This document shows positions 21,849 to 43,237 of a DNA stretch of 64,000 nt, piece by piece. This stretch comes from Haliotis asinina (lineage: Eukaryota): the NCBI RefSeq assembly GCF_037392515.1, contig NC_090294.1:14347038-14411037 (forward strand), in the 5' to 3' direction. How positions within the stretch are numbered: the first letter of the stretch is position 1; every line of letters begins with the position of its first letter. The notes beneath the pieces are model-generated. The model searched no databases. It had not been told where the DNA came from and saw only the letters and a list, made by a program, of their open reading frames with translations. Made by a program: the position numbers and the translations under genes.

Positions 21849-21982
21849 ACAACGAACATCACACGGCTGGAAGTCGGGCCACAGACCCTTGTCCTGAAGA
21901 GTAATGAACGTCTGGAGGCTGGACCTCTACCTATGATTGTTGTTCCTCCTGGTCACTACATCAGTGTCACAGACCCAGTCAG
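21849..21982 (+). CDS. MVP: MVP coding exon (first one found; encodes TTNITRLEVGPQTLVLKSNERLEAGPLPMIVVPPGHYISVTDPV)
   Basis: Acceptor ttctttgttgcag|ACAACG, donor CAG|gtcagt. Aligns to human MVP [45 protein letters not shown]. Confidence 0.85.
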
Positions 21983-22039
21983 GTCAGTTGATCTTGGTCA
22001 CTACTTTAACTGTTGCAGACCCCATCAGGTGAGGTCATC

Positions 22040-23095
22040 TCAGTCACCAGAGCAGTGACACAGACCCCATCAGGTGAGGTCACATCAGTCACCATAAATG
22101 TGTCACAAACCCCATTAGAAGAGGTCATCTCAGGCCCCAAAACAGTCACAGACCCCATCAGGTGAGGTCATTTCAGTCACCATAATAGTGTCACAGACCG
22201 CATCAGGTGAGGTCTTCTCAGTCACTATAACAGAGTCACAGTGCCCATCAGGTGAGGTCACGTCAGTCGCCATAACAGTGTCACAGACACCATCAGGTGA
22301 AGTCACATCAGTCACCATAGCAGCGTCTCAGACTCCAGTGGGTGAGGTCACCTCGGTCACCATAACAGAGTCACAGACCCGTTCAAGTCCGTTCTTCCCC
22401 GTCAGCATGGACCTAAGAGGTCCCATCACATGTTAATCTGTGATAGTGTCACAGACCGCATCAGGTGAGGTCATCTCAGTCACCATAACAGAGTCAAAGT
22501 GGCCATCAGGTGAGGTCATGTCAGTCGCCATAACAGTGTCACAGACACCATCAGGTGAAGTCACATCAGTCACCATAGCAGCATCACAGACCCCTTTCAG
22601 GTGAGGTCATCTTGGGCCCCAGTACAGTGTCACAGTCCCCATCAGTTGAGGTCATCTTGGTCACCATAATAGTGTCACAGACCCCATCAGGTGAGGTCAT
22701 CTCAGTCACCATAAATGTGTCACAAACCCTATTAGAAGAGGTCATCTCAGGCCCCAAAACAGTCACAGACCCCATCAGGTGAGGTCATCTTGGTCACCAT
22801 AACAGTGTCACAGACCCCATCAGGTGAGGTCATCTCAGTCACCATAATAGTGTCACAGACCGCATCAGGTGAGGTCTTCTCAGTCACTATAACAGAGTCA
22901 CAGTGCCCATCAGGTGAGGTCACGTCAGTCGCCATAACAGTGTCACAGACACCATCAGGTGAAGTCACATCAGTCACCATAGCAGCGTCTCCAGTGGGTG
23001 AGGTCACCTCGGTCACCATAACAGAGTCACAGACCCGTTCAAGTCCGTTCTTCCCCGTCAGCATGGACCTAAGAGGTCCCATCACATGTTAATCT
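22040..23095. repeat. Minisatellite with ~60-bp GTCACAGACCCCATCAGGTGAGGTCAYCTCAGTCACCATAA-type units; a ~380-bp higher-order block (22060-22440) is near-identically repeated at 22700-23095
   Basis: Direct reading. The unit resembles the exon end plus donor immediately upstream (GTCACAGACCCAGTCAG|GTCAGTTGATCTTGGTCAC). Confidence 0.9.
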
Positions 23096-23253
23096 GCCAA
23101 TACTAAATGTTAGCATCACATCTGGTAGTTGGTCCAGAAAGACAGATGACAACCTCTGAGCCTTTACCGTGATGTTGCTCTTGTTAACAGTTGTATGTTT
23201 CTAGGTGTTGATGAAGATGTCTTATGTTTACTTTGTTGCTGTTTCATTTCTAG

Positions 23254-23317
23254 CCACTATGAGGCAGGCAAGGCATGTGAGCTCAAACTTGGGCAAAAGG
23301 AAGTAAGACTCCATCAG
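23254..23317 (+). CDS. MVP: MVP coding exon (S)HYEAGKACELKLGQKEVRLHQ
   Basis: Acceptor tttcatttctag|C, donor CAG|gtaggt. Completes NPVS-like DPVS across the splice. EVRLHQ|DPFPLYPG corresponds to human EIRLAQ|DPFPLYPG. Confidence 0.75.
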
Positions 23318-23623
23318 GTAGGTAACATCAATCAAAGGACTCATTTTCCTTTAGATACCATGGTGTTTCCAAGACAGTGAGGTCAAAATGATGTACATTA
23401 ATCCATATAGATATATATTTACTGCAGAACAATTGAGGTAGAATAGGGAGGTAGCAGACAAATTTTGCATTTGGTCTGAAGTGCATTGTCCTGAGTCTGA
23501 TTGTGGTGTTCAATGATCCAGTAAACAATGCCTAAAACAGAAACAGTCCCCTTTGCCATTCTTTTCTTCACCACATACTGTAGATACTACCTTCATGAGC
23601 CTGAATCTCTCTTCTTCCTTCAG

Positions 23624-23848
23624 GACCCATTCCCTCTTTACCCAGGTGAATCGCTCACACTGGCTCCAGAATACGTCCAGCAGCGGGGTCAGTACCAGAA
23701 GGCTGTCCGTCCCCTCCCTGTTATCAAAGCCAACCATGCCATCCGCCTTCGTGCCCTCCTAGACCTGGAGGACTCAGGGGTGAAGAGGAAAGAAGAGGAG
23801 ATGTGGCAGCTGCCTGGACCGCTGACCTACATTCCTAGAGCTGATGTG
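23624..23848 (+). CDS. MVP: MVP coding exon DPFPLYPGESL...GPLTYIPRADV
   Basis: Acceptor cttccttcag|GACCC, donor GTG|gtgagt. Strong match to human DPFPLYPGEVL...GPGTYIPRKEV. Confidence 0.9.
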
Positions 23849-24140
23849 GTGAGTAGGCTACATTCCTAGAACTGGTGTGGTGAGTAGACTACATTCCTTG
23901 CACTGATGTGGTGAGAAGGCTACATTCCTAGCGCTGATGTGGTGAGAAGGCTACATTCCTAGCGCTGATGTGGTGAGTAGGCTACATTCCTAGTGCTGAT
24001 GTGGTGAGAAGGCTACATTCCTAGCGCTGATGTGGTGAGTAGGCTGTATTCCTAGAGCTGATGTGGTGAGTAGGCTACACTCCTAGAGGTAATATAGTGA
24101 GTAGACCGCATTCCTAGAACTGACATGATGAGAAGACTGA
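23826..24140. repeat. 31-bp tandem repeat x ~10 (CTACATTCCTAGNGCTGATGTGGTGAGTAGG) reiterating the exon end and GT donor
   Basis: Direct reading. The first unit is the genuine exon/intron junction GATGTG|gtgagtagg. Confidence 0.9.
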
Positions 24141-24222
24141 AATGTCATAAGATAATGTCCTAAAGTTAATGAAGCAGTGTATCTGATGAGTTCATACACT
24201 TAAAGTGTGATGTTATTAAATA

Positions 24223-25754
24223 TTAATCAGGGGTTCAAAAATCCCATCGCCCGACGCCCGGGACAAGGCAGATTTCATTTCGGGCGTATAAATAATGATA
24301 TCTTACTTGCCCATGGGCTACCTGATAATTACTGCAATGCTTACGGTTCCAACAGGTAAATGTGAGACGATACGAGAGCAAAATGAGGGAACTTTCGCAA
24401 TGATAATAAACTAGAGTTATCTTTCTTTGCTATTTATCCCTCCCCGATCGGGGCCTCGCAGTAAAGCTATTGGAAACCGAAGCGAGCATTTTTATAAATG
24501 ACTGACCAATCACTGACAAGAGAGCCGGCAGGCACGTTTGAGTGAACTGTCAGACCGCGGCTGAATAGCAGACAACTGCCTCGTGTTTTATAAAAAAAAA
24601 AACATGTCACAGAAACTGATGGACAGTTTTTTACAATCGGACACAGGGGTGAAAAGGAAGACCTTGGGTGATGACACCGAAGCCGAGGTTTGCACCAAAC
24701 AATCTAAAGATAAAAAGTACGACAACGAGAAACGGTGTAGACAGTTTCAGAAGTCTTGGTGTTCAAAATGGCAGTGGTTACTTTACAACGAAGAAAAAGA
24801 CATTATGACTTGTGAATATTGTGCACGATTTCCGTCTGTATCCACGAGACATGGGGTAAAGAACACTTTTGTCAGTGGGTGTTCAAAATTCAGAGTAGAA
24901 TATCTGAAAATCCATGACAGTTCAGCCGTTCATGCCGAGTGTTTGTCATATTATTATTATATTCATAGCGGTGAAACCGGTGATTTGGAGGTTGGGGCAA
25001 GCTGCGATAAAGTAGAGAGAGACGGGAAACTTTTGAAGTGTTTTAAAAACATGGACAAGAAGAATTACGATCAAATTGAGAAACTGTTTGTGACAGCATT
25101 TCTCATTGCCAGCAAAGGAAAACCACTAAGTGATTTTGCAATGCACTTAGACTTACTTGACAGGGTTGGTGTGGACATAGGGCATAATTACATAAACATT
25201 GATGGTGCGAGCAAGTTTATTCAAGCAATTTCACATAGTTTGAAAAAAGACTTCCAATCAGATATTAATGAAGCAAACTATGTATCCATTCTTAGTGATG
25301 GGAGTACTGACTCGGCAATTCTTGAACAGGAAACTGTGTTTATTCGTTATGTAAGCCATGGTGTTCCAGTTTCATTCCATGCTGCAGTTGTAACTCTAGA
25401 TCATGCTACTGCTGATGGGGTGTTGGATGGAATAAAAACTACTCTTGAAATGAACGATATTTGTTATGAAAAGCTTGTATCACATGACTGTGAGGGGCCC
25501 AAACTAGTGTCTGCAAACTTTGATGTTCTGTATAAAAACAGTGCCAATTATTACCTGTAAAGAGAGAAAAAAGACGTCCAAACAGTAAACAATAACATCA
25601 AATACCATGTTGATTTATTCTTTCACAATATCATCACAATTATGTCATAAAAATCAGGGCAAGTGGAAAATTAGTCAGGACAAGTTACTTTCTTGAAGTC
25701 ACTTGCCCTGTGGCAAGTGGCTTTTAAAAAAAATTTTGAACCCCTGATTAATTA
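24223..25754 (+). mobile_element. Non-autonomous hAT-superfamily DNA transposon (~1.5 kb) with 18-bp TIRs, inside an MVP intron
   Basis: TTAATCAGGGGTTCAAAA at 24224-24241 and its reverse complement TTTTGAACCCCTGATTAA at 25735-25752. Subterminal GC-rich repeats. Internal ORF has zf-TTF and DUF4371-like hAT transposase regions but lacks the C-terminal hAT dimerisation domain. Confidence 0.75.
24583..25560 (+). pseudogene. Truncated hAT transposase-like ORF (zf-TTF + DUF4371-like, 325 aa)
   Basis: W-x-FPWL-like KSWCSKWQWLLYNEEKDIMTCEYCARF...FVSGCSKFRVEYLKIHDSSAVH (TTF-type zinc finger). FIQAISHSLKKDF...SILSDGSTDSAILEQETVFIRYV (DUF4371-like). Confidence 0.65.
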
Positions 25755-25832
25755 TTAGCTTTCATACACTCACATGTTTATTATGTTCAGTGAAACCGGT
25801 TGTTAACTGTTGTTACTGTTGCCATGTTACAG

Positions 25833-25924
25833 GAAGTTGTCAAGGTTGTGCAGCCATTCATCATCAGGAATGGAGATTCCCTAAATCTACGGGCCATTCA
25901 GGACTGTTATGACAATGATGGAAA
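25833..25924 (+). CDS. MVP: MVP coding exon EVVKVVQPFIIRNGDSLNLRAIQDCYDNDG
   Basis: Acceptor tgttacag|GAAG, donor AA|gtaagg. Matches human [30 protein letters not shown]. Confidence 0.85.
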
Positions 25925-27039
25925 GTAAGGATGGTTGTTGATGCCTTTTAGAAAGTGGTCAAATGTAACATGTTTTTTATTACATTTTGCGAGTGAAGTC
26001 CAGATTCTAATGCTTTACTTTGTGTGATGGTGCTTGTGTGCATCTCTCTGAGAGTGTGGATTCAACTCCCTAGTGGGACTCAAGCCAAAGGTACTACACT
26101 TTGTACTTTTCTGAGAAAGTGTGGAACACCTCCAAGGGGAGCGGGACTTGAGACAACATGAGACATAGCGTCACACAAAGAAAGGTAGCTTCAGTTCTTG
26201 TACACCTTTGAGATAGGGTGAACACTAAGTATACAGAGAAGAGTCCAACAGAGGCTATCAGCTTGTCCCTTCAAGTCCTTGGTTGTCTCTCTGCTGGTCT
26301 GTCCACGCCCTTCCCGCTGTCTTCCGGCTCCCCTTTCCCTTGCCTAACCACCCTGTTTTTATGTGTACATGAATAACAACAATTTGCTTAGCTTGCTATA
26401 TTTTCGACAAGTCAGCAGTTTCCACTGATTTGATAAGCTGTGGGTGACACACCGCAGACAAGTGTCCCGACACATCATTTCTAAGTGTGCACAAACAACA
26501 GTGTTACAAGTGTAATCAGATCCCCCATTTTTGGATGACTTCTTGTATTTCTGAAACAAGTACATTCAAATAGATGTACACTTGGCTTGAAGGATATGTT
26601 GTCTCTCTTAATGTACATGCCAATCAGATATTGGCCTTTTTTCTTTTCTATTTTTTTTTTTTTTTGAGTTAACTAACAAAATTAGTATGTTTGCATTTCT
26701 AAACGATAAGGACTGGAACTTCATATGACTAAAGGGAAGTAACTCTACATGGCACTGTATTACCTCCCCTGTCGAGAATCCCCTGGTTATAGGGCCCAGT
26801 TTGAGACTCCTCTGTATCAAGTTACTCACACTTTTCATATCAGGTATCCAGGTTAGCAGACAAGTGAATTTTGAACCACCTCAAGTTTGCCAGGACAGCA
26901 TAACCCAGGTTCTTAAATGTAGGACAGCATTCACTATTGAACACGAAAAGGTCATATTTGGGTCATTATCGATACCAGTCGATTGAATTTTAAAGCTTAC
27001 TTTATTAACTCAGCATCAGATATGAAATAACTGAAATGA

Positions 27040-27212
27040 CCCATGTGGATATAGCTGTGTCTAGTGGTTTAAACATTCACTTGTCATGCCAAAAGCCTGG
27101 ATTTGAATCCCAACATGGGTACAATGTGTGGAGCTCATTTCTGGTGTTCCTCACCATGATATTGCTGGAATATTGCTAAAAACAGCAAAAAAAATAAACT
27201 CGCTATATATTA
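27040..27212 (+). mobile_element. tRNA-derived SINE family A copy
   Basis: TAGTGGTTTAAAC (A-box-like) ... GGATTTGAATCCCAACATGGGTACAATGTGTGGAGCTCATTTCTGGTGT...GATATTGCTGGAATATTGCTAAAAACAGC. Confidence 0.8.
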
Positions 27213-27457
27213 CCTGTGAATATATCTTAAAATAAACTTTTCAACTCGTCAAAATATAATGTGTATTTGAATACCCGTTTAGGGACCATTGATAATCTAT
27301 GGCTAGGGGGAGTGATGATGATTTGTAATGGTAAACCATGTACAATGTGAACAACACCTGAGATTTATGTGTATCTATGCTTTCAAATAGGAATATATTT
27401 ATATTCATGAAGCCTCGAGTGAACATGGATTGGTTTATTGTTTGGTTCCATTTTCAG

Positions 27458-27527
27458 CAAGCGAGTGACTGGTGAAGAATGGCTTGTGTCAACACCAGGG
27501 GCTTATGTACCAGGAGTGTTTGAAGAG
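27458..27527 (+). CDS. MVP: MVP coding exon (N)[23 protein letters not shown]
   Basis: Acceptor ccattttcag|C, donor GAG|gtgaga. Matches human [23 protein letters not shown]. Confidence 0.9.
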
Positions 27528-28894
27528 GTGAGACAAAATCTGTTTGCTTTCTGAATTACAGTAAGTCATTGTACGGAGTGATCTGTGGGCTAGTAACCAA
27601 GACCATGACTCCTAAACTGAACACAGACTTAAAACAGTCTTAGTACTAAGGTTGCTTTGTTTAACTGCACACAGGGCTTAATGTTATGACACACGCATGC
27701 ACAAAATAGCTCTAATATCCAGCAACAAGTGCTGCGCAAAGGAGATTCCAAGTGCTTGAGTAACTGGATATGGTCTGTTTGCAGTTGAAGGGTACTGATG
27801 AATTTCACTTTAATCAGTAATGTAAATGAAATAAAGTAAAATTAAGGTTGTGAATCCTCAGAATTTTACCTTGCCAACTGAAAATTCCTATCTTAGAATA
27901 ATAATCAACTTTGGAAAGAGTTGGACACTGCTGACAATAGAAAATATGAAAAATCTCAAGTCTGATTCACCACTACGAACCATCAAGGTCCTTATGATCA
28001 AATGACCAGATGGTCTTACTCTTGTCAGTTATGATGCACGAAAATGTTCATGGACAGATCATTTGAAAGGCACGGACCATACTAATGGAACAGTCTACCA
28101 TCTGACATTCCGTGTGTACGTTTACGTCAACACATAAGATGCATTATTACAGACATGCATGCTGTAACCACAGTCTGTTTGCAGTGAAAATGTACTGATG
28201 AAGTTTACTTTAAACAAAAAGGTAAATCAAATAAAGTGAAGTTAAGGTTGCAAATCCTCATAATTTTACCTTGCCATTTGAAAAGTTTCAGGATTTTGTT
28301 CAACTTAGGATAAAAATTGTTTAAAAAACAATCATAGTTTCAAATCGCTATTATTGGTTTGTATTACAAGAGTTCATGCACATTAAACAAAATACCAAGA
28401 CAGTGTTCGCGTTAGTGCAGAAACATGTTTTTCAAGCAAAACAAATAATAAAACCAAAATCACAAAAAATATTTAGCATGCAGCTTTTGGACACATAGAT
28501 TCTGATCTACATAATTTTAGAAAGTATCTTAAAATTGCTACATAAACACAACCAATAAATTTTAACATGATTCCGGATTGGGCTGAAATTTCTTGCGCAA
28601 AAAGTTTGGACTACATATTTATGACTTTATTTCTGCACAGAGTCATACAAAACCTACCGCAACCACTGCCAAGAACATCGGAGGGTTGGTCTAACTTAAC
28701 ACTCATCACATACTGCACATGCATTTCTTTCTCTGTTTCAACTACTGCGCTTACTCCCTTGTAATACAAAAAAGTTCATAAGCGATTTGAAACTATGATC
28801 ATTAGTTGGCTCATGACGTATTTATAAAATTTCTGATAATTAGAGAATTAAGATGGATAAATATTCACTTCAACTGTATTGTGTTTCACTGTAG

Positions 28895-28989
28895 GTACTC
28901 GGTGTGAAATCAAAGATAACCTTGACCCATGATGCTGGCCTTCACCTTCGTGCCACTCGGACATTAACTGATGCGTATGGTGACAGCAG
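28895..28989 (+). CDS. MVP: MVP coding exon VLGVKSKITLTHDAGLHLRATRTLTDAYGDS(R)
   Basis: Acceptor tcactgtag|GTACTC, donor CAG|gtaaat. Matches human [32 protein letters not shown]. Confidence 0.85.
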
Positions 28990-29139
28990 GTAAATTATGT
29001 GGTTAAATCATCCTTTTGTCCATTTGGGTCATTCGGACTGCAGCTGTGGATAGACTTAGTATGTGTTGTATTACCCATTCTCAGTGAAGTACAGATTCCT
29101 GTACTTTGGTTGGGTTTGGCTTGATTTGGTTAGTTGTTT

Positions 29140-29390
29140 CTATGCTTCACTGATCAATATTCCAGCTGTGTGGCGCCGGTTTGTAAATAATTGAGTCCGG
29201 ACCAGACAGTTAAGTGGACAATAGCATGAGCATCAATCTTTACACTTGGGATATGATGACTTATGTCATCCAACTGAGCAAGCCTTACTACCCAATCTCA
29301 TTGGTCTGATTTTACAACAGGCATGGGTTTCTGAAGACTGATTCTCAATTTTTTAGGGGTTGGGCCCCATCTGGAGACTGTGTTCATAGT
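29140..29390 (-). mobile_element. SINE family B copy (minus)
   Basis: Reverse complement gives CAGAAACCCATGCCTGTTG...GATTGATGCTCATGCTATTGTCCACTTAACTGTCTGGTCCGGACTCAATTATTTACAAACCGGCGCCACACAGCTGGAATATTGATCAGTGAAGC. Confidence 0.75.
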
Positions 29391-29728
29391 CATGGATATG
29401 TTAATTGTTTGGTATCAAACTTGTGTGTTTTTCAAAAGTTGACTACAGTCCCCCATGCTTGTCATTAGTGTAGATCACTTGACTATTTAGAGGTGGCCAT
29501 TTTGTTTGCCACAGTGTTGCAACAGAAAACAAACGACCCTTGCTAAATGTTCCACTTAGATAGTTTCCCAACAACCTATGTTACAAGAAGCATTTGAAAC
29601 ACAAAGGAGCAAATGATGGCCAGTCTTTGTACCCCAATAATTGTAGCTCACAAAAATAAATCACTGGATAAATGTATGTACTGATGTGAAGTACACTCAG
29701 TGAAGGGTGTGTGATGTTTTTGTTGCAG

Positions 29729-29795
29729 GTTGGCTGGAGATGAATGGCTTCTGACAGGAGAAGAAACTGATAGTTATTTTCCTGAAGTTGGAGTG
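29729..29795 (+). CDS. MVP: MVP coding exon (R)LAGDEWLLTGEETDSYFPEVGV
   Basis: Acceptor ttttgttgcag|G, donor GTG|gtaatt. Matches human [20 protein letters not shown]. Confidence 0.85.
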
Positions 29796-29837
29796 GTAAT
29801 TCAGTCCTAGTTCATAGATGTTTTGGTAAAGAATATG

Positions 29838-30000
29838 AGTGTGTGAGTGAGTATGGTTGGATGCTACTGTAATCAATATTTCAGCAATATCACGGAACAC
29901 ACCAGAAATGGACTTCACATATTGTATCCATGTAGGGAATCAAACCCGGGACTTCTATGCGACAGGCGAACACTTAAACCACTGGGCCATTCCACCACCT
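29838..30000 (-). mobile_element. SINE family A copy (minus)
   Basis: ACACCAGAAATGGACTTCACATATTGTATCCATGTAGGGAATCAAACCCGGG is the reverse complement of the family A core. Confidence 0.8.
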
Positions 30001-30849: not shown

Positions 30850-31093
30850 CAGTAAGGCACTAGGATATTCATCACATGACTTATCCCACCAGGTACCCAT
30901 TTTCTGCTGGGCGAACAGTTGTAAGGTAGTTGAAAAAGCCTTCACTCATGACAATAAAGCCCCGAGTTTGATTCCCCACATGGGTACAATGTGTGAAGCC
31001 CATTTCTGGTGTTCCCTATTGTGATGTTTCTGGAGTATTGCTAAAATCAGCATAAAACACAACTAACTCACTCACTCACTCACTCACTCACTT
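30850..31093 (+). mobile_element. SINE family A copy with (CACT)n tail
   Basis: GAGTTTGATTCCCCACATGGGTACAATGTGTGAAGCCCATTTCTGGTGT...GGAGTATTGCTAAAATCAGCATAAAAC...ACTCACTCACTCACTCACTCAC. Confidence 0.85.
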
Positions 31094-31165
31094 TGTTAAT
31101 GATGTGCATGAAATAGTTAAAGACAGTGTTGATGTAGTCGGTAACCAAGACATGTCCTGCTGCAG

Positions 31166-31307
31166 GAGGTCGTGAAGCAGGTGAAGAAGACAGTGGTCAG
31201 CAAGGGTCAGTACTGTGTTGTCCTTGACCCTGTAGATGAAGACAAGAGGCCATGCCTTGGAAAGCGGGTGCTGAAGAAGGGGTTGTGTACATTTTTCCTT
31301 CATCCAG
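31166..31307 (+). CDS. MVP: MVP coding exon EVVKQVKKTVVSKGQYCVVLDPVDEDKRPCLGKRVLKKGLCTFFLHP(G)
   Basis: Acceptor tcctgctgcag|GAGGTC, donor CCAG|gtaaac. Matches human [35 protein letters not shown]. Confidence 0.9.
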
Positions 31308-32070: not shown

Positions 32071-32139
32071 TATTTCATACTCTAAGACATTAATGTCAAA
32101 GTCCGAGTGAACCTTGAAAATATTTGTGTGTTTGAACAA

Positions 32140-32325
32140 CTACAAACGGGATCGAGTGGCAGGCTTGGTTGACAAATGTCAGTGTATCGCTATTGAGTAG
32201 ATCAGTGCTCATGCTGTTGGTCACTGGATTGTCTGGTCCAGACTGTATTGTTTACAGACCACTGCCATATAGCTGGAGTATTGCTAAGTGTGGTGTAAAA
32301 CCAAACTCACTCACTCACTGAAAGT
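32140..32325 (+). mobile_element. SINE family B copy (5'-truncated) with (CACT)n tail
   Basis: GATCAGTGCTCATGCTGTTGGTCACTGGATTGTCTGGTCCAGACTGTATTGTTTACAGACCACTGCCATATAGCTGGAGTATTGCTAAGTGTGGTGTAAAACCAAACTCACTCACTCAC. Confidence 0.85.
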
Positions 32326-32354: not shown

Positions 32355-32456
32355 GTGAGAGGCTTGAGGATGGCATACAGAACTCCCATGTCCTGTCAGC
32401 TGATGAGAGCCTCGTCCTCCAGGCCACGGGAGCATTTACTGATGATATGTTTAAAG
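32355..32456 (+). CDS. MVP: MVP coding exon (G)ERLEDGIQNSHVLSADESLVLQATGAFTDDMFK(G)
   Basis: Acceptor ccatgtttag|GTGAGAGG, donor AAAG|gtatgg. Matches human [36 protein letters not shown]. Confidence 0.85.
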
Positions 32457-32809: not shown

Positions 32810-32900
32810 GAAAGCCTAAAAGAAAGCCAGGTGATTTGTGGTTGATCCGAGGACCACTCGAGTACATCCCACCCATTGAAGTGGAGATTGTGAAGAAAAG
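32810..32900 (+). CDS. MVP: MVP coding exon (G)[29 protein letters not shown](R)
   Basis: Acceptor t-rich tract caacag|GAAAGCC, donor AAAAG|gtaatg. Matches human [25 protein letters not shown]. Confidence 0.9.
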
Positions 32901-33168: not shown

Positions 33169-33229
33169 AGAAACTATGCCGCTTAGCAAGAATGAGGGTA
33201 TCTATGTTCAGAACAGGCAGACAGGGAAG
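33169..33229 (+). CDS. MVP: MVP coding exon (R)ETMPLSKNEGIYVQNRQTGK
   Basis: Acceptor tttgttccag|A, donor AAG|gtacgt. Matches human [20 protein letters not shown]. Confidence 0.9.
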
Positions 33230-33329: not shown

Positions 33330-33590
33330 TGGCAGGATGGTAAAGTGGACACTCCTTATGCCAAACATTGGTGTTTAATTTCCCACATGGGTACAATATG
33401 TGAAGCCAATTTCTAGTCTCCCCTGTTGTGATGTTGCATGAATATTGCTAAAAGCAGCATAAAAGTCCACTCAAGTCTCACTCACACTCCCACTGACCCA
33501 TCCTGTCACTCACTCACTCACTCACTCACTCACTCACTCACTCACTCACTCACTCACTCACTCACTCACTCACTCACTCACTCACTCTGC
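33330..33590 (+). mobile_element. SINE family A copy followed by a long (CACT)n tail
   Basis: TTTCCCACATGGGTACAATATGTGAAGCCAATTTCTAGTCTCCCCTGTTGTGATGTTGCATGAATATTGCTAAAAGCAGCATAAAAG... then (CACT)~20 at 33507-33588. Confidence 0.85.
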
Positions 33591-33765: not shown

Positions 33766-33865
33766 GACCGGCCATCAGAGATATTTTTCAAGTTACCATT
33801 CAACGTTATTTCGCACTGAGGGGTCCCGAAGTCACCTGTTTGATAATTTATGACTGTCTCTTCAG

Positions 33866-33960
33866 ATAAGAAGTGTGATGGGGCCATGCTCGTACATGCT
33901 GAATGCACACGAGGAACTATGGGAGAAACCATTAACTCCAGAGGTTGAGGAGATACTCAG
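33866..33960 (+). CDS. MVP: MVP coding exon IRSVMGPCSYMLNAHEELWEKPLTPEVEEIL(R)
   Basis: Acceptor tgtctcttcag|ATAAGA, donor CAG|gtaccc. Matches human [30 protein letters not shown]. Confidence 0.9.
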
Positions 33961-34573: not shown

Positions 34574-34652
34574 GAATGGTGGTGGCATCGGTGATGGAAA
34601 CATTCGAAAACTGGCATACTACGAGCAGTCCATCAATCCAAGTATTCTCATG
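34574..34652 (+). CDS. MVP: MVP coding exon (R)NGGGIGDGNIRKLAYYEQSINPSILM
   Basis: Acceptor atatttccag|G. Donor ATG|gtactg is a weaker donor, chosen for frame continuity with the next exon. Corresponds to the variable human NKGQDPLADRGEKDTAKSLQPLA segment. Confidence 0.65.
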
Positions 34653-35215: not shown

Positions 35216-35290
35216 AGTTATGGCCTGGCCATTCAGATCTGTATCCTACTGATTTCACTTATTATGTTTTCTTTCATTTTTTTTTCTCAG

Positions 35291-35347
35291 GGCAGAAACA
35301 GAACCAAAATAGTTACATACCGTTGTCCCGGTAACACAGCTGTCCAG
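35291..35347 (+). CDS. MVP: MVP coding exon GRNRTKIVTYRCPGNTAVQ
   Basis: Acceptor ttttttctcag|GGC, donor CAG|gtgagt. Matches human PRNKTRVVSYRVPHNAAVQ. Confidence 0.9.
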
Positions 35348-35647
35348 GTGAGTTGTGCATGAACAGGTGATTAATATTTGTGGAAAAGAGAATGAAAATT
35401 GTAGAGGTAACATGCATACACTATGGTATAACATGGTTGTTTATGTTGTTTGTTTAAATTGTTACCCTGGTAGCAGTACACTGAAAGACATTTCTAAAAA
35501 CATGTTACAATATGTATGTTATTTTGGTAGTGTATGTTTTGATTATGCTAAGTCTGAAGGAAGAACTATTTGCACTAACACCTCAAGTTTTGTTTTGCTG
35601 TTTACACAGACATAAGAAGTAATATATATATAGAAAATTCTCTCACA

Positions 35648-35945
35648 TAATTGACCCATGAAGGTCTGGGGTAGAATAGGCCTTCAGCAACCCATGCTTG
35701 CTGTAAAAGGTGACTATAAGAGGCGAATAACAGGATTGTGTGGACAGGCTTGCTGCCTTGGTTGACACATTTTATCATTTCCGCAGATTGGCGCAGATTG
35801 ATGGTCATGTTGTTGATCACTGGATTGTCTGGTCCAGACTTGATTATTTACAGACCACTGCCACATAACTGGAATATTGCTGGGTGCAGCATAAGCCTAA
35901 ACTCACTGACTCATTCACTCACTCACTCACTCACTCACTTACTGT
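35648..35945 (+). mobile_element. SINE family B copy (full length) with (CACT)n tail
   Basis: GGGGTAGAATAGGCCTTCAGCAACCCATGCTTGCTGTAAAAGGTGACTA...GATTGATGGTCATGTTGTTGATCACTGGATTGTCTGGTCCAGACTTGATTATTTACAGACCACTGCCACATAACTGGAATATTGCTGGGTGCAGCATAAGCCTAAACTCACTGACTCATTCACTCACTCAC. Confidence 0.85.
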
Positions 35946-36075
35946 CACATAATTTGTTGTTTGTTTGCTGTAACAAAAGGCAAACTCTTCAAGTCTTCAA
36001 AATATGTTTGGTCCATGATCAATTTTTCCCATTTTCCTGAACCAGTACTTGATCACACTTGTGACAATCTTGCAG

Positions 36076-36172
36076 GTGTACAATTATATGCAAAAGACTG
36101 CGAGGGTAGTGCTCGGGCCAGACCTCATCATCCTGGGTCCACATGAAAACTTCAACGTGCTCAGTCTCAGTG
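36076..36172 (+). CDS. MVP: MVP coding exon [32 protein letters not shown](G)
   Basis: Acceptor atcttgcag|GTG, donor AGTG|gtcagt. Matches human [33 protein letters not shown]. Confidence 0.9.
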
Positions 36173-36244
36173 GTCAGTAGATACTTGATGTACTGGCCAT
36201 AGATATATTTAATTCCAGTTTTGTGTTCATCGTTGTCCATTTAC

Positions 36245-36425
36245 TTAATTACCCATGAATCTCTGGGTTAGGCTTGATCTTCTATAACCAATGCTTGTCC
36301 TAAGAGGTGACAAATGGGATCAGGTGGTCAGGCTTACTCACTTTACACATTCTATCCCATTTCCTCAGATCGATGCTCTTGATCACTGGATCACGCACTC
36401 ATCGACTTAATTTCAAGTGATCCCA
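36245..36425 (+). mobile_element. SINE family B fragment (5' part)
   Basis: CTCTGGGTTAGGCTTGATCTTCTATAACCAATGCTTGTCCTAAGAGGTGACAAATGGGATCAGGTGGTCAGGC...GATCGATGCTCTTGATCACTGGATCA. Confidence 0.65.
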
Positions 36426-36755
36426 TTCTTCTATGTTTCATATTGTACTGTTAGTGCTTTAAGAGCCTATCTTGTTTGTATGACAAAGTGGTCTCATCTC
36501 CAGTGTTTAATTTTGCATGGGATTTGGGATCCTAAAAGGTAATAATCCTGATTAGGCCCTGCCCTTTCTACATACATATGTAATTATGAAATAAATATTA
36601 GGTGTACGTACAATGACATCTGTAAGATTGAAGCTGGCCACAAAACTACCAACTGCTGTGATGATGAAAACTTGTACATTTTATTATATTTCACTCTAAA
36701 GAGAGTGTGATTTTTAATTTCTTTTTTTTTGTTTGTTTGTGTGTGTGTACATCAG

Positions 36756-36835
36756 CTGGCAAGCCCAAGAAAGCCAATGCTTTGAAGTCACTATGCATGA
36801 TGTTGGGGCCAGACTTTATTACAGATATTCTTGAG
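36756..36835 (+). CDS. MVP: MVP coding exon (A)GKPKKANALKSLCMMLGPDFITDILE
   Basis: Acceptor gtacatcag|CT, donor GAG|gtaaga. Matches human [28 protein letters not shown]. Confidence 0.9.
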
Positions 36836-37221
36836 GTAAGAAGATCTTTGCATTCCATGATTTTTATAGAGAAGCATATCCCTCCCCTTCGCCTTCTCCA
36901 CCTGTACAAAACAACGACGCCCCATCCACCCCACCACCCCTTCTAGGGAATCACTACATTAACCCCCTAGCCGTAAGTTTTGAATGTTTCCTATGTATTT
37001 TGTTTTAAATTATTTACATTGATTTTTGCAAAATATGATTTCAAGTTGAAATGTGCAAATGTTGTGAATCATCCTGATTTGCCAAAGTCCCACTTTGGCC
37101 ATTGTGATATTGTTGACCAATCATTGATTGAGACTGAACATTACCCATAACCCATTATCCATTCTTATGTTTCTGTGACACGTAGAACTTACTTAACATG
37201 GCTTATGTTTTTTGCATGCAG

Positions 37222-37281
37222 GTTGAGACTGCAGATCATGCAAGACTAAAAATCCAAATAGCATTCAACAATCATTTCGAG
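37222..37281 (+). CDS. MVP: MVP coding exon [20 protein letters not shown]
   Basis: Acceptor ttttgcatgcag|GTT, donor GAG|gtaatt. Matches human [20 protein letters not shown]. Confidence 0.95.
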
Positions 37282-37407
37282 GTAATTATTTATATATTTC
37301 AAGAAATGATGATATTTTTTTAGTTATTTACATAGATTTTTTGTTTATATTTATAAGATACAATAAATATATGTTATATTCTGTAAATGTAGATAATTTC
37401 TTCACTG

Positions 37408-37582
37408 CTCATGAGGGGAGGTTGTAAAGCCTAGTGGTTAAAGCCTTCACCTTCTTGCTAGAAGATCCAGGTTCAATTCCCCACATGGTTGCAATTTGTG
37501 GAACCCATTTCAGGTGTCTGATATTGCTGCAATATTGTTAAAAGCAGCATAAGACTAAATTCACTCACTCACTACATCGAAC
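37408..37582 (+). mobile_element. SINE family A copy with CACT tail
   Basis: GCCTAGTGGTTAAAGCCTTCACC...CCAGGTTCAATTCCCCACATGGTTGCAATTTGTGGAACCCATTTCAGGTGTCTGATATTGCTGCAATATTGTTAAAAGCAGCATAAGACTAAATTCACTCACTCAC. Confidence 0.85.
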
Positions 37583-37605
37583 TTGAATGTGTGATTCACT
37601 TTCAG

Positions 37606-37684
37606 TATTATCGAAATGATGATGAAAGTCTGAAGCAAATGTTTGCTGTACCGGACTTTATCGGCTTTGCCTGTCGACAAGTTG
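37606..37684 (+). CDS. MVP: MVP coding exon YYRNDDESLKQMFAVPDFIGFACRQV(G)
   Basis: Acceptor ttcactttcag|TAT, donor GTTG|gtaagt. Matches human [28 protein letters not shown]. Confidence 0.9.
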
Positions 37685-37714
37685 GTAAGTATGATGTTGT
37701 TCCCCTAAACTAGA

Positions 37715-38420
37715 TCCTGTTTCACAAATTAAAGCTAAAGGAGCATTACGATTGTCATAGCTCCTATGGAGGGCCCCATTTTACAAGGTTGTTATGGCAC
37801 TATAACTTCAAATGTGTCATACCTCCTATCTAGGGCCCTGTTTGACAAATTTGATTCACTGCGGCATCTGTCATACCATTTGTGCAGGGTCCCATCTCAC
37901 AAAGCTAACTCAGCATTATGAATGTCATACCTCCTGTAAAGGGCCCCATTTCACAAAGCTAACTCAGCATTATGAATGTCATACCTCCTGTAAAGGGCCC
38001 CATTTCACAACGCTGTTGTAGTACTCCTATACAGGGACCTATTTCACGATGGTAACTTAGCACTGACTGTTGTACCTCCTAAATGGGCCCATTTCTTCAA
38101 GCTATTTCAGTGCAGCATCTGTTGTTCCTGCTATACAGGGACCTGTTTCATAAAGCTGTGGTAGCACTTTGACTTTCATACCTCCCATACAGGGTCCCTT
38201 TTCACAAAGCTAACTTAGCACTACGTATGAAATAACTTCTATGTAGGGCCACATTTCACAAAACCTTTGAAGCACTATGACTGTCATAGCTCCTGTATGA
38301 CAGTCCATGGCCCCATTTCACAAAGCTAATTTAGCACTACGAATGTCATACCCCTATACATGAAATCTGTAGGGCTATGATAGCTTTCTGAAACAGGGTT
38401 CAGGAGCACTGCTGTCTGCC
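37715..38420. repeat. ~61-bp satellite-like tandem repeat (GGGCCCCATTTCACAAAGCTAACTYAGCAYTAYGAATGTCATACCTCCTRTA...), ~11 units, in MVP intron
   Basis: Direct reading. Two adjacent units are near-identical at 37925-38040. Confidence 0.85.
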
Positions 38421-38979
38421 TGATTTTAGTGGGTCATTCTTATCCATTTCCAATCTTTTCACCCTCAGACACAACTGGAATATGTTACAGTGGAAAATAT
38501 GACTCATTAGTTTTGGAATTACACTTTCTTGGTGAAGTACAGATTCCAGTACTTTTGTAGGTGTCAGTATTGGGTATTTCTGAGCGGTAATCTGCTCAAG
38601 AGTTGTTTCCCCTTGGACACACTCATGGGATGTGAACCAAGCATATGTACTTGCAGTTGGATGAAGAAGAAAGTTTGTTCTGGTCGAGACACAGCTTCGT
38701 GATATGACAGCAGGGTCCCATCAGGGATTTGAACCTAAACTCTCAGAGTTACTTAATTGGCAGCACACAAAGGCAGCCATCTTACTCACTCAGCCACCAC
38801 TACTTCCACCAAAATGGAAGTGTGACAACTGGTAGTTCAGACCTCAGATTTCTGTACCCCTCTGGCAAGTGTGATTTAACAGACTCCCATGCTTGAAAGT
38901 CATGAATACACAAAGCCATTTAGAAAGTTGTCAAATGTAACACAATTTTCCACCATTTCTTCGGAACACCTCTTTCCAG

Positions 38980-39125
38980 GAAGCCGAATCAGGGGTGCCG
39001 TTGCCCTGGTTCCCTTTGATGAGTTCCACAGACACTCCCTGCAGATCATACGAACGGCCGTTTTCGGTATCAATCCTGTGAACAAGCAGCTGAGGACACA
39101 CATCAGGTTCAGTGAAAACAACCTG
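38980..39125 (+). CDS. MVP: MVP coding exon (G)[48 protein letters not shown]
   Basis: Acceptor cctctttccag|GA, donor CTG|gtaggt. Matches human [32 protein letters not shown]. Confidence 0.9.
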
Positions 39126-39184
39126 GTAGGTGGCAATGAAACTGTATAACAATTCATTACTGTCCTTTGTGTCTTCTGTGGCTA

Positions 39185-39350
39185 CCACGGGCAGTGGGGT
39201 AGACTAGTGGTTAAAGCATTCACTCATCCAGCCAAAGACCCGGGTTTGATGCCCTGCATGGGTGCAGTGTGTGAAGACCATTTCTGGTGTTCTGATATTG
39301 CTGGAATGTTGTTAGAAGCGGCATGAAACCAAACTCACTCTCTCACTGTT
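39185..39350 (+). mobile_element. SINE family A copy
   Basis: GGGTAGACTAGTGGTTAAAGCATTCACTCATCCAGCCAAAGACCCGGGTTTGATGCCCTGCATGGGTGCAGTGTGTGAAGACCATTTCTGGTGTTCTGATATTGCTGGAATGTTGTTAGAAGCGGCATGAAACCAAACTCACTCTCTCAC. Confidence 0.85.
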
Positions 39351-39739
39351 TGGTACTGTCATGTCAGTCATATACCATCACTGATTGCTCTGCTGCAGAA
39401 GCTAATTAGCTGCCTTTTTACACACAAGCCACTGTTTTCAAACTGTGATGGATGTTGATATTGGATGTTTCTGAGGAGAAAAAATAAGGGATTTCATGAA
39501 AGCACAAGTGTTCCCTTATTTTCCTCCAGGTTTCTTCAAGTCTATGCGTTACAAAGCTTGTGAAGAAACCTGGAAAAATGTAAAGAAACACTTGTCCTTT
39601 CATATTATCCCTTATTTTTTACCTTCAGTATATGTACATTGATGCACGAAGCTTTTGACATAAGCAAGTTGGATGTAAGTTTAGATTTGTAATCGTATGA
39701 TGTTGATCAAAACTGTTTCGTGACAGATACAAACTAATA

Positions 39740-39850
39740 CAGTTTGAATCTCCACATGTGTGCAGTGTTTGAAGCCCATTTCTTGTATCCCCTATGGTGA
39801 TATTGCTGGAATATCAGAGGAGTGCAAAACCAAACCTCACTAACTCATGC
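39740..39850 (+). mobile_element. SINE family A fragment (3' part)
   Basis: CACATGTGTGCAGTGTTTGAAGCCCATTTCTTGTATCCCCTATGGTGATATTGCTGGAATATCAGAGGAGTGCAAAACCAAACCTCACTAACTCA. Confidence 0.75.
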
Positions 39851-39864
39851 CTTTACATCCCCAG

Positions 39865-39965
39865 GTAATTACCAATATCGATGTTCAAAGCATCGAGCCA
39901 TCAGATGTGAAGATGAGGGACAGCCTCAGCAAGTCAATACAGATGGCCATAGAGATTGCAACAAG
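39865..39965 (+). CDS. MVP: MVP coding exon [33 protein letters not shown](R)
   Basis: Acceptor catccccag|GTAATT, donor CAAG|gtttgt. Matches human [34 protein letters not shown]. Confidence 0.9.
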
Positions 39966-40014
39966 GTTTGTTCTTGATGTTTGTTTTCAGCAACCATCTT
40001 CTAGGTCTAGGGAT

Positions 40015-40200
40015 ATGGCAGTCCAGGGATGGTAGCGTAGCCTACTGGTTAATGCATTTGCTTGCCACATTGAAGATCTGGGTTTGATTCCCCACATGGG
40101 TACAATGTGTGAAGCCCATTTCTTCTGTCTTGTACTGTGACATAGCTGGAATATTGCTGAAATCGGTGTTATAATAAATTCACTCTCTCACTCACTAATA
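40015..40200 (+). mobile_element. SINE family A copy
   Basis: GTAGCCTACTGGTTAATGCATTTGCTTGCC...CTGGGTTTGATTCCCCACATGGGTACAATGTGTGAAGCCCATTTCTTCTGTCTTGTACTGTGACATAGCTGGAATATTGCTGAAATCGG...ATTCACTCTCTCACTCAC. Confidence 0.85.
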
Positions 40201-40494
40201 CCTAATTATGTTAAACTATGGCTTGTACCACAAGTAACCCAGCCCCATTATCTCTAAAGTTTCTTTGACCTCTGAATAACAGTTATATACAATTAAACAG
40301 ACCAAGGACTCAGTTTGTGTGGACCAATATTTGCCAATTATATTAGTCCCTTCAATGTAGGGATATATGCTGGACAAAAATAGTTAGGGATATAAATAGT
40401 GAATAATGATCTACTTATTCACTGACACACTGATGGAATATGAAGATCCCTAACTTATTTTGTCCAGTATAGATTAGAATAGGGTCTCTTGTGT

Positions 40495-40705
40495 CCTTTG
40501 CTGGATGTGACCAGTAAAGATCCATGTTAAGTTGGTCTTCAGAAACCCATACTTGTCATAAGAGCTATCAAGCTATCCCAAATCAATGCTCATGATTTTG
40601 ATCACTGGATTATTTTGTCCAGATTCAATTATTGACAGACCACCACAATATAGCTGGAATATCGCTCAGTGCCACCTTAAACAACAAACATGGAAACATT
40701 TCCTG
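40495..40705 (+). mobile_element. SINE family B copy
   Basis: CAGAAACCCATACTTGTCATAAGAGCTATCAAGC...AATGCTCATGATTTTGATCACTGGATTATTTTGTCCAGATTCAATTATTGACAGACCACCACAATATAGCTGGAATATCGCTCAGTGCCACCTTAAACAACAAAC. Confidence 0.75.
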
Positions 40706-40916
40706 TCTTAAAAGGTGACTGAATACTCACTTTCTTTCTCCATTTTGCATCATTGTTCGTCATTGTTGTGTGTTATTGTTCCCCAATATCATGGATCATT
40801 GTTCCCGAGTATCTTGGGTAATTGTTCCCCATCATTATTCTCCAGTATCGTGGGTCATTGTTCCCCATTGTCGGGAATAGCCACAAGCAGTCTTGAAAGT
40901 TGTAAATACTGTACAG

Positions 40917-41143
40917 GTCCATTGAGAATGCAGCAGCCCACGAGGCTGACAAGATCGAACAGGCAGCACGAGGTCAGCTGGAGAGACAGAAGCTGGCCAA
41001 TGAGAAGGATGCAGAGAAGGAGAGAGCCAACTTGCTGCATCTTTGTGCTATAGCTGCAGCTGTCGAGTCAACTGGGCAAGCCAAGGCTGAAGCACAGGCC
41101 CAGGCAGAGAGGATGCTCATAGAGTGTCAGAGTGAGATCGAAG
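40917..41143 (+). CDS. MVP: MVP coding exon (R)SIENAAAHEADKIEQAARGQLERQKLANEKDAEKERANLLHLCAIAAAVESTGQAKAEAQAQAERMLIECQSEIE(G/A)
   Basis: Acceptor atactgtacag|G, donor GAAG|gtgagt. Matches human [73 protein letters not shown]. Confidence 0.9.
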
Positions 41144-41383
41144 GTGAGTTGTATATGATACAGAGGGACTTTTATGGAAGAAAGTTGCCAGGTCAAACAT
41201 ACATTCAGGGCATTTTTTTCTCATATTGGAATGGTCACTTCCATCATAGCAAGTGTCTGCTTTTGTTTAATATTTGTAAATCTTGAATAATATATGACTT
41301 AGAATTAGCAGAGGATGACTCAAACTGGGACTGTCAGTATACATGTTCAGTCTATGGGTTACAATCTATGGGTTTTTTTTCAG

Positions 41384-41448
41384 CTGCAAAACTGAAAGCA
41401 GAGGCAGAAGCAATAGAACACCAAGCAAAACTGGAGACACAGAGCATG
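41384..41448 (+). CDS. MVP: MVP coding exon (A)AKLKAEAEAIEHQAKLETQSM
   Basis: Acceptor ggttttttttcag|CT, donor ATG|gtaaga. Matches human LQAKLKAQALAIETEAELQRVQK. Confidence 0.9.
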
Positions 41449-42013
41449 GTAAGACATAAACATGAACACTTACTTTTTGAAATTACTTTTTTACTTTTTT
41501 TTCAGAACTTGCATTTCTTATGTTGTTCAGTATATTCATGACACACCACCATAGAGCATGGTACAGTCCATTTGGTTCAAAAGTGGACCAATGAATTGCA
41601 GTCTAGTAAGCAAAAAAAATTGTCTGGTCCAGACTCAACCACTACCATATAGCGTGAATATTGCTGAGTGCAGCTTTAAAAACAAACCAAATCTTGAGAA
41701 GAATTCCATATGGATCTGTTTTCATAAGATCCCAACACAGTGGGACTTGCAGCAGACAACTAAACTGGTCAGGTCCATTACAAGTCATTGTTCAATAAAG
41801 GCAGGCAACTGTGTTTCTTAATATCAAACACTGGTGTGCTTAGACAAGAATCCAAGATGTACAGGCCTCACTGATATAGATTATTTAACATGTTTTTGCT
41901 TAAGAAACATTCATTTACACTACTTTAATATGCATGTCATTAGGCGTTAACTCTTGCATAAAGTTACTGTTTGAGGTTCCAAATGTGAGGAGGGTATTGT
42001 GACTTGTGTGCAG

Positions 42014-42094
42014 GTGAGGAGAGGGGAGCTGAACTACCTGCGAGGTCATAACGAGCTTTACCTGGACAAAGAAAGAAGAAAGGCGGAGATTGAG
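42014..42094 (+). CDS. MVP: MVP coding exon VRRGELNYLRGHNELYLDKERRKAEIE
   Basis: Acceptor ttgtgtgcag|GTG, donor GAG|gtgata. Matches human [27 protein letters not shown]. Confidence 0.9.
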
Positions 42095-42334
42095 GTGATA
42101 CAAATCCAGATATGTTCTCCTTTCATGCAGCTTTGATTTGCTGACATTGTGCATGCGATTTTCTATTACCACATGATTTGATCATAATCAGCAAGCTGTG
42201 TTATCATTTCTTGATCCTTTTCCACGTATTGATACCCTCGGTGGCTGCATCTATGTTTTAATGGGGAATATTCTCTTTCAAATAAAGAGAAATTACAACA
42301 GAGTAATTGTTATATTATTGGCAATCATGGTTTT

Positions 42335-42610
42335 ACTAAATAATACTTTATTCTGATGATACCTGTAAAGATCCGGGTTAGAACTGGTCTTCAGCAACCC
42401 ATGCTTGTCAACTGAGGGGATGGGTGGTCAGGATCGCTGACTTGGTTGACACATGTCGTCGTCTCCCAGTTTGTGTGGAATGATACTCATGGTGTTGATC
42501 ACTAAATTGTCTGCTCCAGACTCTATTATTTACCGACTGTCATCATGTATCTGGAATATTGATGTGTGCTGCATTAAACGACAAACCAACCCAATCATTC
42601 TGATGACCAA
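42335..42610 (+). mobile_element. SINE family B copy
   Basis: GGTCTTCAGCAACCCATGCTTGTCAACTGAGGGGATGGGTGGTCAGGATCGCTGACTTGGTTGACACATGTCGTC...ACTCATGGTGTTGATCACTAAATTGTCTGCTCCAGACTCTATTATTTACCGACTGTCATCATGTATCTGGAATATTGATGTGTGCTGCATTAAACGACAAACC. Confidence 0.8.
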
Positions 42611-42729
42611 GTCTGATGACCAAAGGGAAGCAACTCTTGTGTGTTTTCTTTCAATTCACAGGGCGTTCAAAGTAAATGAATTTTCAACATTTTTTGTTGA
42701 AACTTTTGACCATTACTTTCTATTTTCAG

Positions 42730-42810
42730 GTGAACAAATTCCAGGAGATGATTGAGAGTATTGGCCAAGAGACCTGTGCAGCCATGGCCCAGGCGGGCCC
42801 AGATACTCAG
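42730..42810 (+). CDS. MVP: MVP coding exon VNKFQEMIESIGQETCAAMAQAGPDTQ
   Basis: Acceptor ctattttcag|GTG, donor CAG|gtgaga. Matches human [27 protein letters not shown]. Confidence 0.9.
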
Positions 42811-42844
42811 GTGAGACATTTTGTGTCCTGTAGGAATTCCTCCA

Positions 42845-43100
42845 CAGAACCCATGACAATCCAGGGTAGAGCTGATCTTCAGTACCTCATGCCTGTGGTA
42901 GGGGCAACTACTAGAGCATGTGGTCAAGCTTGCTGACTTGGTTCACTCATGTCTTCGTAACCCAGTGGTGTAGACAGATGCTCATGCTATTGATCGGTGG
43001 ATTGCCAGGGCCAGACTCGATTATCACCAGACTGCAGCCATGTAGCCAGAATGTTGCTGAGTCGGCATTAAACGACAACCAACCAACTTCAGTGTTACCT
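42845..43100 (+). mobile_element. SINE family B copy occupying most of the last MVP intron
   Basis: GGTCAAGCTTGCTGACTTGGTTCACTCATGTCTTCG...CAGATGCTCATGCTATTGATCGGTGGATTGCCAGGGCCAGACTCGATTATCACCAGACTGCAGCCATGTAGCCAGAATGTTGCTGAGTCGGCATTAAACGACAACCAACC. Confidence 0.8.
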
Positions 43101-43111
43101 TTGTTTTTCAG

Positions 43112-43237
43112 ATCCGCTTGCTGCAGGCTCTCGGGATGCAGAGTGTGTTGTTCACTGATGCCAAGAATCCCCTCAACCTGTTCAACACGGCAGGTGGTCC
43201 TGTAGGCATGGAAACGGATGGGCAGGCATCTGCCTGA
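43112..43237 (+). CDS. MVP: MVP terminal coding exon IRLLQALGMQSVLFTDAKNPLNLFNTAGGPVGMETDGQASA*
   Basis: Acceptor cctttgtttttcag|ATC. TGA stop at 43235-43237. Matches human [38 protein letters not shown]. Confidence 0.9.
   Translation: MRLLQALGMQSVLFTDAKNPLNLFNTAGGPVGMETDGQASA

Follow-up and report, generated by a model that had tools for sequence, protein, structure and literature searches.

Major vault protein (MVP) is a well-known and widely conserved protein, with solved structures from human, rat and rabbit (PDB 4V60, 4HL8, 7PKZ, 9BW5 and 9Z4W). Most eukaryotes are said to have a single MVP paralogue, and among ecdysozoans the protein is present in most lineages except winged insects (PMC11219742). 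From human genes comes a description of minisatellites that start with a monomer lying across an exon-intron boundary, namely those of F7 intron 7, IFI6 (6-16), CBS, LMNB2 and PDGF (PMC1557585); for genome-wide occurrence of tandem repeats anchored at 5' splice sites (donors), our literature search found only such single-gene human cases. Here we analyzed a 64,000-nt stretch of the abalone Haliotis asinina (contig NC_090294.1, forward-strand positions 14,347,038 to 14,411,037, assembly GCF_037392515.1), called the window below and numbered from its first letter. Window 20783-43237 on the + strand is almost certainly the complete coding region of the H. asinina MVP gene, in its intron-rich copy (clade A of two MVP clades in lophotrochozoans), and two of the donors of this gene are overlapped by minisatellites.

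The MVP coding sequence (CDS) is made up of 26 coding exons separated by 25 introns, all with GT-AG boundaries, and its 2586 nt encode an 861-aa product in a frame that is open throughout (Table 1). Stop-to-stop translation of the + strand gave MVP-like peptides from ~20.8 to 43.2 kb, and the exons were mapped by tblastn with the best database protein, then by an exact spliced search (GT or GC donors, AG acceptors). Run as an exhaustive depth-first search, the latter returned a single solution, in which exons 2 to 26 occupy 21849-43237 (2517 nt; 838 codons plus a single terminal TGA). An earlier, model-made reading of the same DNA (the initial annotation) had reconstructed precisely these 25 GT-AG exons from raw sequence alone; the spliced search reproduced them exactly and yielded no frame-consistent alternative to their boundaries. 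A hidden intron in exon 4, near a 13-aa insertion relative to human MVP, was also considered and rejected: the sole GT...AG candidate (52 nt) would shift the frame, and the insertion belongs to the RefSeq product. The CDS spans 22.5 kb in the window versus 39.5-43.9 kb in other abalones, because intron size differs. Past the stop codon, the first hexamers resembling poly(A) signals are ATTAAA at 44047 and AATAAA at 44868.

The initial annotation had regarded the gene as near-complete, with its first coding exon missing and lying upstream of 21849 or diverged. While its 25 exons were right, the gene is complete, and both guesses about the missing exon hold: it is found at 20783-20851, and it reads ITGLMPYQYVHVLDL where IIRIPPYHYIHVLDQ was the expected motif, with 10 of 15 residues matching. 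An in-frame stop lies 12 codons 5' of its ATG, and it is followed by a phase-0 intron of 997 nt (intron 1), whose position is common to the deep-sea snail Gigantopelta aegis, Lingula and the coral Porites. Moreover, when the N-termini (32 residues) of other species were searched by tblastn against 1..21848, six of the seven best matches fell at 20798-20857, in exon 1 or immediately beyond it; these came from Gigantopelta, Mytilus, Lingula, Lytechinus, Porites and Crassostrea, and only the Patella N-terminus was not placed there. Since exon 1 was found together with a conserved intron position, the window gene is therefore complete.

Conservation extends 5' of the ATG: window 20599-20892 is 84% identical to the H. 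rufescens orthologous locus over 297 nt (dS of the CDS, 0.51). Furthermore, the observed/expected CpG ratio is ~1.0 at 20250-21250, versus 0.2-0.3 downstream in the gene body (21250-22750). Given the conserved 5' flank and the lack of CpG depletion around exon 1, we infer that a promoter and 5' untranslated region (UTR) lie directly upstream of the ATG. The CpG contrast at exon 1 is the pattern expected of an unmethylated promoter beside a methylated gene body.

The spliced product is 100% identical over 861 residues to RefSeq XP_067656927.1, "major vault protein-like [Haliotis asinina]". As judged at the protein level rather than by DNA record, the window gene is thus the H. asinina gene already present in the RefSeq annotation, or an allele encoding the same protein. 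A crude joined peptide recovered 2870 MVP homologues from the database, the best being this same 861-aa protein, and a search with the conceptual product likewise recovered MVP, with the H. asinina MVP-like protein as best match; the initial assignment to MVP was therefore correct. Every MVP motif it had quoted is in the product, including NPLNLFNTAGG. Its inference of a lophotrochozoan source was right as well (H. asinina is a vetigastropod mollusc), while the taxonomic argument behind it, the absence of MVP from insects and nematodes, is looser than presented, as cnidarians, sponges, a myriapod and a rotifer have MVP as well.

All Pfam matches of the product exceeded the curated cut-offs: Vault (E-value 7.6e-55, four stretches), Vault_2 (3e-22, two stretches), Vault_3 (1.4e-37), Vault_4 (6.3e-10) and PF11978 MVP_shoulder, the last covering residues 531-649 and the whole profile (positions 1-118 of 118; 6.4e-45). 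In a phmmer search of PDB, residues 9-858 aligned with human MVP 7-856 in one matched stretch (E-value 1.6e-251), and the cap region aligned to human 648-856 without large gaps, including AVESTG.AKAEA and P.NLFNTA. An AlphaFold2 model built with 34 homologues had a mean predicted local distance difference test score (pLDDT) of 77. In this model the beta repeats extend to about residue 520 and are followed by an alpha/beta shoulder and by two helices, 650-718 and 724-804; the last 30 residues scored below 50. The top 18 Foldseek matches of this model were all MVP chains (E-value 3e-74), and on murine R1-R7 it superposed at 2.2-2.7 A with a target-normalised TM-score (template-modelling score) of 0.88-0.91. 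After MVP came flotillin, HflK/C, prohibitin and stomatin (SPFH proteins), as expected for the shoulder.

By homology with the rat, human and rabbit particles, 78 copies of abalone MVP would form a hollow, barrel-shaped vault. The N-terminal beta-sandwich repeats (approximately residues 1-520) would make up the barrel wall and the waist contact, and the SPFH-like shoulder domain occupies about 531-649. Bundles of the long cap helix (about 650-804) would make the cap, whose ring would be closed off by the C-terminal tail. By this analogy abalone MVP is inferred to assemble into vaults. An Rfam scan of the whole window at gathering thresholds gave no matches, so no vault RNA gene is linked here.

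Orthologues of the window gene were mapped in H. rubra, H. rufescens, H. cracherodii and Gigantopelta, and homologues in Lingula and Porites. The products of the three abalone orthologues are at least 90% identical to the window product, and exon lengths are equal in the four Haliotis species except for exon 4, which has 225 nt in H. asinina and H. rubra but 222 nt in the two others. All 25 intron positions are common to Gigantopelta, which has one extra exon of 54 nt and three other exons of differing length, and 24 of the 25 positions, with their phases, are common to the MVP gene of Porites lutea; therefore the 26-exon structure is ancient. Micro-exons suggested inside the exon 22 array of H. 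rubra (see below) proved spurious, as the first copy in the array is the exon itself, intact, and the gene fits a plain model of 26 exons. Against the H. rufescens orthologue, the ratio of nonsynonymous to synonymous substitution rates (dN/dS) was 0.098 at dS 0.51, as under purifying selection. On sequence grounds, the window gene is an intact and constrained MVP gene.

In a neighbour-joining tree, lophotrochozoan MVPs fall into two clades. Clade A, that of the window gene, clusters with the MVPs of deuterostomes, cnidarians and sponges, and its Haliotis-Lingula identity is 59%; clade B was found in protostomes only among the sampled sequences, including the myriapod and the rotifer, and its Haliotis-Lingula identity is 82%. 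Clade A thus evolves fast and clade B slowly. The clade B paralogue of Haliotis (XP_071093773.1 in H. cracherodii, XP_067681168.1 in H. asinina) has 858 aa and the same Pfam set, yet is only 49.5% identical to the window protein. Moreover its H. cracherodii gene (locus L004, 2001-15813) has 14 coding exons in 13.8 kb, and of its 13 introns just one has a position in common with any of the 25 in the window gene. Because the two clades have almost no introns in common, this one clade B gene model, together with the neighbour-joining tree, suggests that clade B is an old intronless retrocopy that regained introns.

Three points limit this reading of the window gene and its product: i) the gene model was derived from DNA and protein comparison, so that the transcription start, any non-coding 5' exon, the poly(A) site and the donors in use are putative; ii) the whole-chain predicted TM-score (pTM) of the AlphaFold2 model is 0.39, so that the relative arrangement of the domains is unsupported by the model, although such a value is expected of a long multi-domain rod modelled as a monomer; iii) with a clade B paralogue also present in Haliotis, either copy may build the vaults, or the two may co-assemble. 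The clade A copy may accordingly be imagined in another or an additional role, for example as an extracellular structural protein, with clade B making the vault shell. The existence of two clades and the much faster evolution of clade A would suit this idea, as would the report of a non-vault extracellular role for a copepod (salmon-louse) MVP (PMC11219742). We nevertheless consider it unlikely, as the deuterostome, cnidarian and sponge MVPs group with clade A, which retains their intron positions, and as the window protein retains all domains, aligns over its full length with human MVP and is under strong purifying selection.

Tandem Repeats Finder detected two minisatellites at donors of the window gene. 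The exon 2 array (45 bp x24) begins 21 nt before the donor, so that its first unit spans the exon 2/intron 2 junction, and occupies most of intron 2; it contains 16 pseudo-donors, mostly CAG/GTGAGG (slash, exon-intron boundary), while the authentic site is GTCAGT. In the exon 4 array (31 bp x9.6), the unit joins the terminal 22 nt of exon 4 to the 9 nt that open intron 4, GTGAGTAGG; eight pseudo-donors lie in this array, and four of these match the authentic 9-mer GTG/GTGAGT exactly. Splicing at any of these 16 + 8 pseudo-donors would cause a frameshift and/or a premature stop, the latter for each site of the exon 4 set. Because pseudo-donor products are shifted or stopped, the arrays would be harmless to the protein while the first donor is used.

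Could the pseudo-donors act as alternative 5' splice sites, giving isoforms with repeat-encoded insertions? They are numerous and well formed, with four matching the authentic exon 4 9-mer; those of exon 2 (GTGAGG) agree with the consensus in having a purine at +3, in place of the C of the authentic site; long open frames traverse the 45-bp array; and human IFI6 and CBS do use the first two pseudo-sites of such arrays (PMC1557585). However, since every pseudo-donor shifts the frame and/or stops it, the outcome would be truncation or nonsense-mediated decay; moreover, the RefSeq models of four species all take the first donor, and human F7 uses its upstream-most donor only (PMC1557585). Isoforms of this kind are thus very improbable, and the first, authentic donor is predicted to be used exclusively at both array-bearing junctions. 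Still less credible, to the point of being nearly negligible, is that the locus is a 5'-truncated or non-functional MVP pseudogene without the conserved N-terminus, for which nothing remains but the somewhat diverged N-terminus (10/15 relative to the vertebrate motif), against an exon 1 with ATG, GTGAGC donor and conserved phase-0 intron, an intact 861-codon frame, a dN/dS of 0.098 and intact orthologues across four Haliotis species.

Arrays at donors recur in the orthologous genes of the other abalones and Gigantopelta (Table 1). The copy numbers of the exon 2 and exon 4 arrays vary between Haliotis species, and further arrays occur at the donors of exons 11, 22 and 23 in some of the species. 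The arrays account for large intron-size differences between abalone species: intron 22, for example, measures 240 nt in the window versus 6485 nt in H. rubra, where it is swollen by the exon 22 array. In Gigantopelta, a 76-bp x2.1 duplication lies across one donor, and a 74-bp x20 array that starts 8 nt past another donor holds an exon tail plus GTAAAC. Counted as independent, the junction arrays number at least six, from five different junctions of four Haliotis species, with one or two further ones in Gigantopelta. No array lies across an acceptor in the Haliotis and Gigantopelta MVP genes examined, and no donor-spanning array was found in the H. cracherodii clade B paralogue or in the Lingula and Porites genes.

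Pooled over genes, 10 of 27 arrays span a donor versus 0.9 expected (binomial P ~9e-9, with counts that are not fully independent). In a conservative test, in which the discovery species was dropped and arrays common by descent were counted once, the fraction was 4 of 18 against a null rate of 0.033 (P = 2.6e-3). Tentatively, donor-anchored arrays may therefore arise in gastropod clade A MVP by a process tied to the 5' splice site, a proposal to which we would give well under even chances. Candidate causes would be microhomology-mediated slippage, favoured where a junction is paused or bound by U1, or an advantage of having additional U1-binding sites. The duplicated segment of the exon 22 array in H. 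rubra is bordered by a 4-nt ACAG microhomology, as would be consistent with simple slippage. Tolerated neutral duplications or minisatellite-rich gastropod genomes could instead account for the arrays. Whatever their origin, recurrent donor-anchored arrays are natural test cases for how the spliceosome chooses the first among many identical 5' splice sites.

Elsewhere in the window no other gene was recognised among open reading frames (ORFs) of at least 90 aa on both strands, a search that short-exon genes at 43.3-64 kb could escape; ten ORFs outside MVP were compared with Pfam and gave transposon remnants only. In H. rufescens, likewise, the 10 kb flanking the MVP orthologue on each side contain no called gene. 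The remnants upstream of MVP comprise a mariner-like transposase fragment and a long interspersed nuclear element (LINE)-like sequence broken over several frames. An ORF in intron 4 resembles a truncated gene derived from a hAT-type transposase; its insertion is probably recent, because the ORF is absent from the orthologous loci (no tblastn match in those of H. rubra, H. rufescens and Gigantopelta). Dispersed repeats of at least one family, resembling short interspersed nuclear elements (SINEs) or miniature inverted-repeat transposable elements (MITEs), often end in a (TCAC)n tract (e.g., 33506-33587) and translate to the recurring pseudo-peptides LITGLSGPDSIIYRP and PHMGTMCEAHF; several copies sit inside MVP introns. 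Downstream of MVP lie a (CTA)n/(CTG)n microsatellite of ~52 triplets and a near-perfect 56-bp x3.2 tandem repeat, neither of them in a recognised gene.

Table 1. Features of the MVP locus and its surroundings, with donor-associated arrays of related genes. Positions are those of the window unless another locus is named.
Feature	Position	Strand	Details
Conserved block 5' of ATG	20599..20782	+	putative 5' UTR and core promoter
Coding exon 1	20783..20851	+	69 nt, MSHDKEGGITGLMPYQYVHVLDL, donor CTG/GTGAGC
Coding exon 2	21849..21982	+	134 nt, donor CAG/GTCAGT
Coding exon 3	23254..23317	+	64 nt
Coding exon 4	23624..23848	+	225 nt, donor GTG/GTGAGT
Coding exon 5	25833..25924	+	92 nt
Coding exon 6	27458..27527	+	70 nt
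Coding exon 7	28895..28989	+	95 nt
Coding exon 8	29729..29795	+	67 nt
Coding exon 9	31166..31307	+	142 nt
Coding exon 10	32355..32456	+	102 nt
Coding exon 11	32810..32900	+	91 nt
Coding exon 12	33169..33229	+	61 nt
Coding exon 13	33866..33960	+	95 nt
Coding exon 14	34574..34652	+	79 nt
Coding exon 15	35291..35347	+	57 nt
Coding exon 16	36076..36172	+	97 nt
Coding exon 17	36756..36835	+	80 nt; shoulder domain starts here
Coding exon 18	37222..37281	+	60 nt; ETADHARL
Coding exon 19	37606..37684	+	79 nt
Coding exon 20	38980..39125	+	146 nt; IIRTAVFG
Coding exon 21	39865..39965	+	101 nt
Coding exon 22	40917..41143	+	227 nt; cap helix, AVESTGQAKAEA
Coding exon 23	41384..41448	+	65 nt
Coding exon 24	42014..42094	+	81 nt
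Coding exon 25	42730..42810	+	81 nt
Coding exon 26	43112..43237	+	126 nt including TGA; NPLNLFNTAGG; 3' UTR after
Exon 2 array	21962..23036	+	45 bp x24; first unit spans exon 2/intron 2 junction
Exon 4 array	23827..24123	+	31 bp x9.6
Exon 2 donor, by species			H. asinina 45 bp x24; H. rubra x49; H. rufescens x34; H. cracherodii x30
Exon 4 donor, by species			H. asinina 31 bp x9.6; H. rubra x78; H. rufescens x19; H. cracherodii x8.5
Exon 11 donor, by species			none in H. asinina, H. rubra; 34 bp in H. rufescens x26.5, H. cracherodii x52
Exon 22 donor, by species			H. rubra 66 bp x97; none in H. asinina, H. rufescens, H. cracherodii
Exon 23 donor, by species			none in H. asinina; 33 bp in H. rufescens x85, H. 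cracherodii x34
Exon 23 donor, H. rubra			77 bp x15, begins 60 nt past donor
Arrays, locus L001	36226-36411, 44886-46467		
Arrays, locus L002	4043-6264, 7643-10275, 36890-43187, 43549-44701		
Arrays, locus L003	7140-8649, 10460-11104, 20358-21257, 36833-39666		
Arrays, locus L008	4525-6059, 8400-8664, 17376-19375, 38450-39581		
Mariner-like DDE_3 transposase fragment	2574-2933 (in 1890-2988)	+	upstream of MVP
LINE-like element	14342-17158	+	CCHC knuckle and RVT_1 (E-value 1e-12), broken over several frames
Intron 4 ORF	24565-25557	+	331 codons, zf-C17orf113 finger (E-value 1.9e-8)
Dispersed repeat copies	5784-6004, 12226-12421, 30966-31078, 32215-32314, 35729-35913		
Dispersed repeat copies	40082-40194, 42417-42567, 45703-45808, 49592-49844, 51258-51372		
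Microsatellite	52693-52848		downstream of MVP
56-bp tandem repeat	44474-44651		downstream of MVP

Compared with the vertebrate MVPs, the abalone protein is colinear, with 46-47% identity in structural alignments and the same domain order of repeats, shoulder, cap helix and C-terminal tail. Relative to human MVP it carries a 13-residue insertion (APEYVQQRGQYQK, residues 103-115), a 7-residue deletion in the R1-R2 region, and short indels near residues 440-462 and 618-626. The gene is divided more finely, with 26 coding exons against about 15 exons in the human MVP gene. As for the arrays, a minisatellite placed at a splice junction is an architecture already known, whereas its recurrence at several junctions of one gene is unusual. 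Like F7 intron 7, the abalone arrays present an authentic donor and, after it, a series of identical or near-identical pseudo-donors. Unlike F7, they do so at two junctions of a single gene in H. asinina, and the orthologues of the three other abalones and Gigantopelta have up to four such arrays, which are distributed over five different junctions and hold 8 to 97 copies. The exon sequence captured per unit also differs, being ~7 to 50 nt in the gastropod MVP arrays versus 4 nt in F7.

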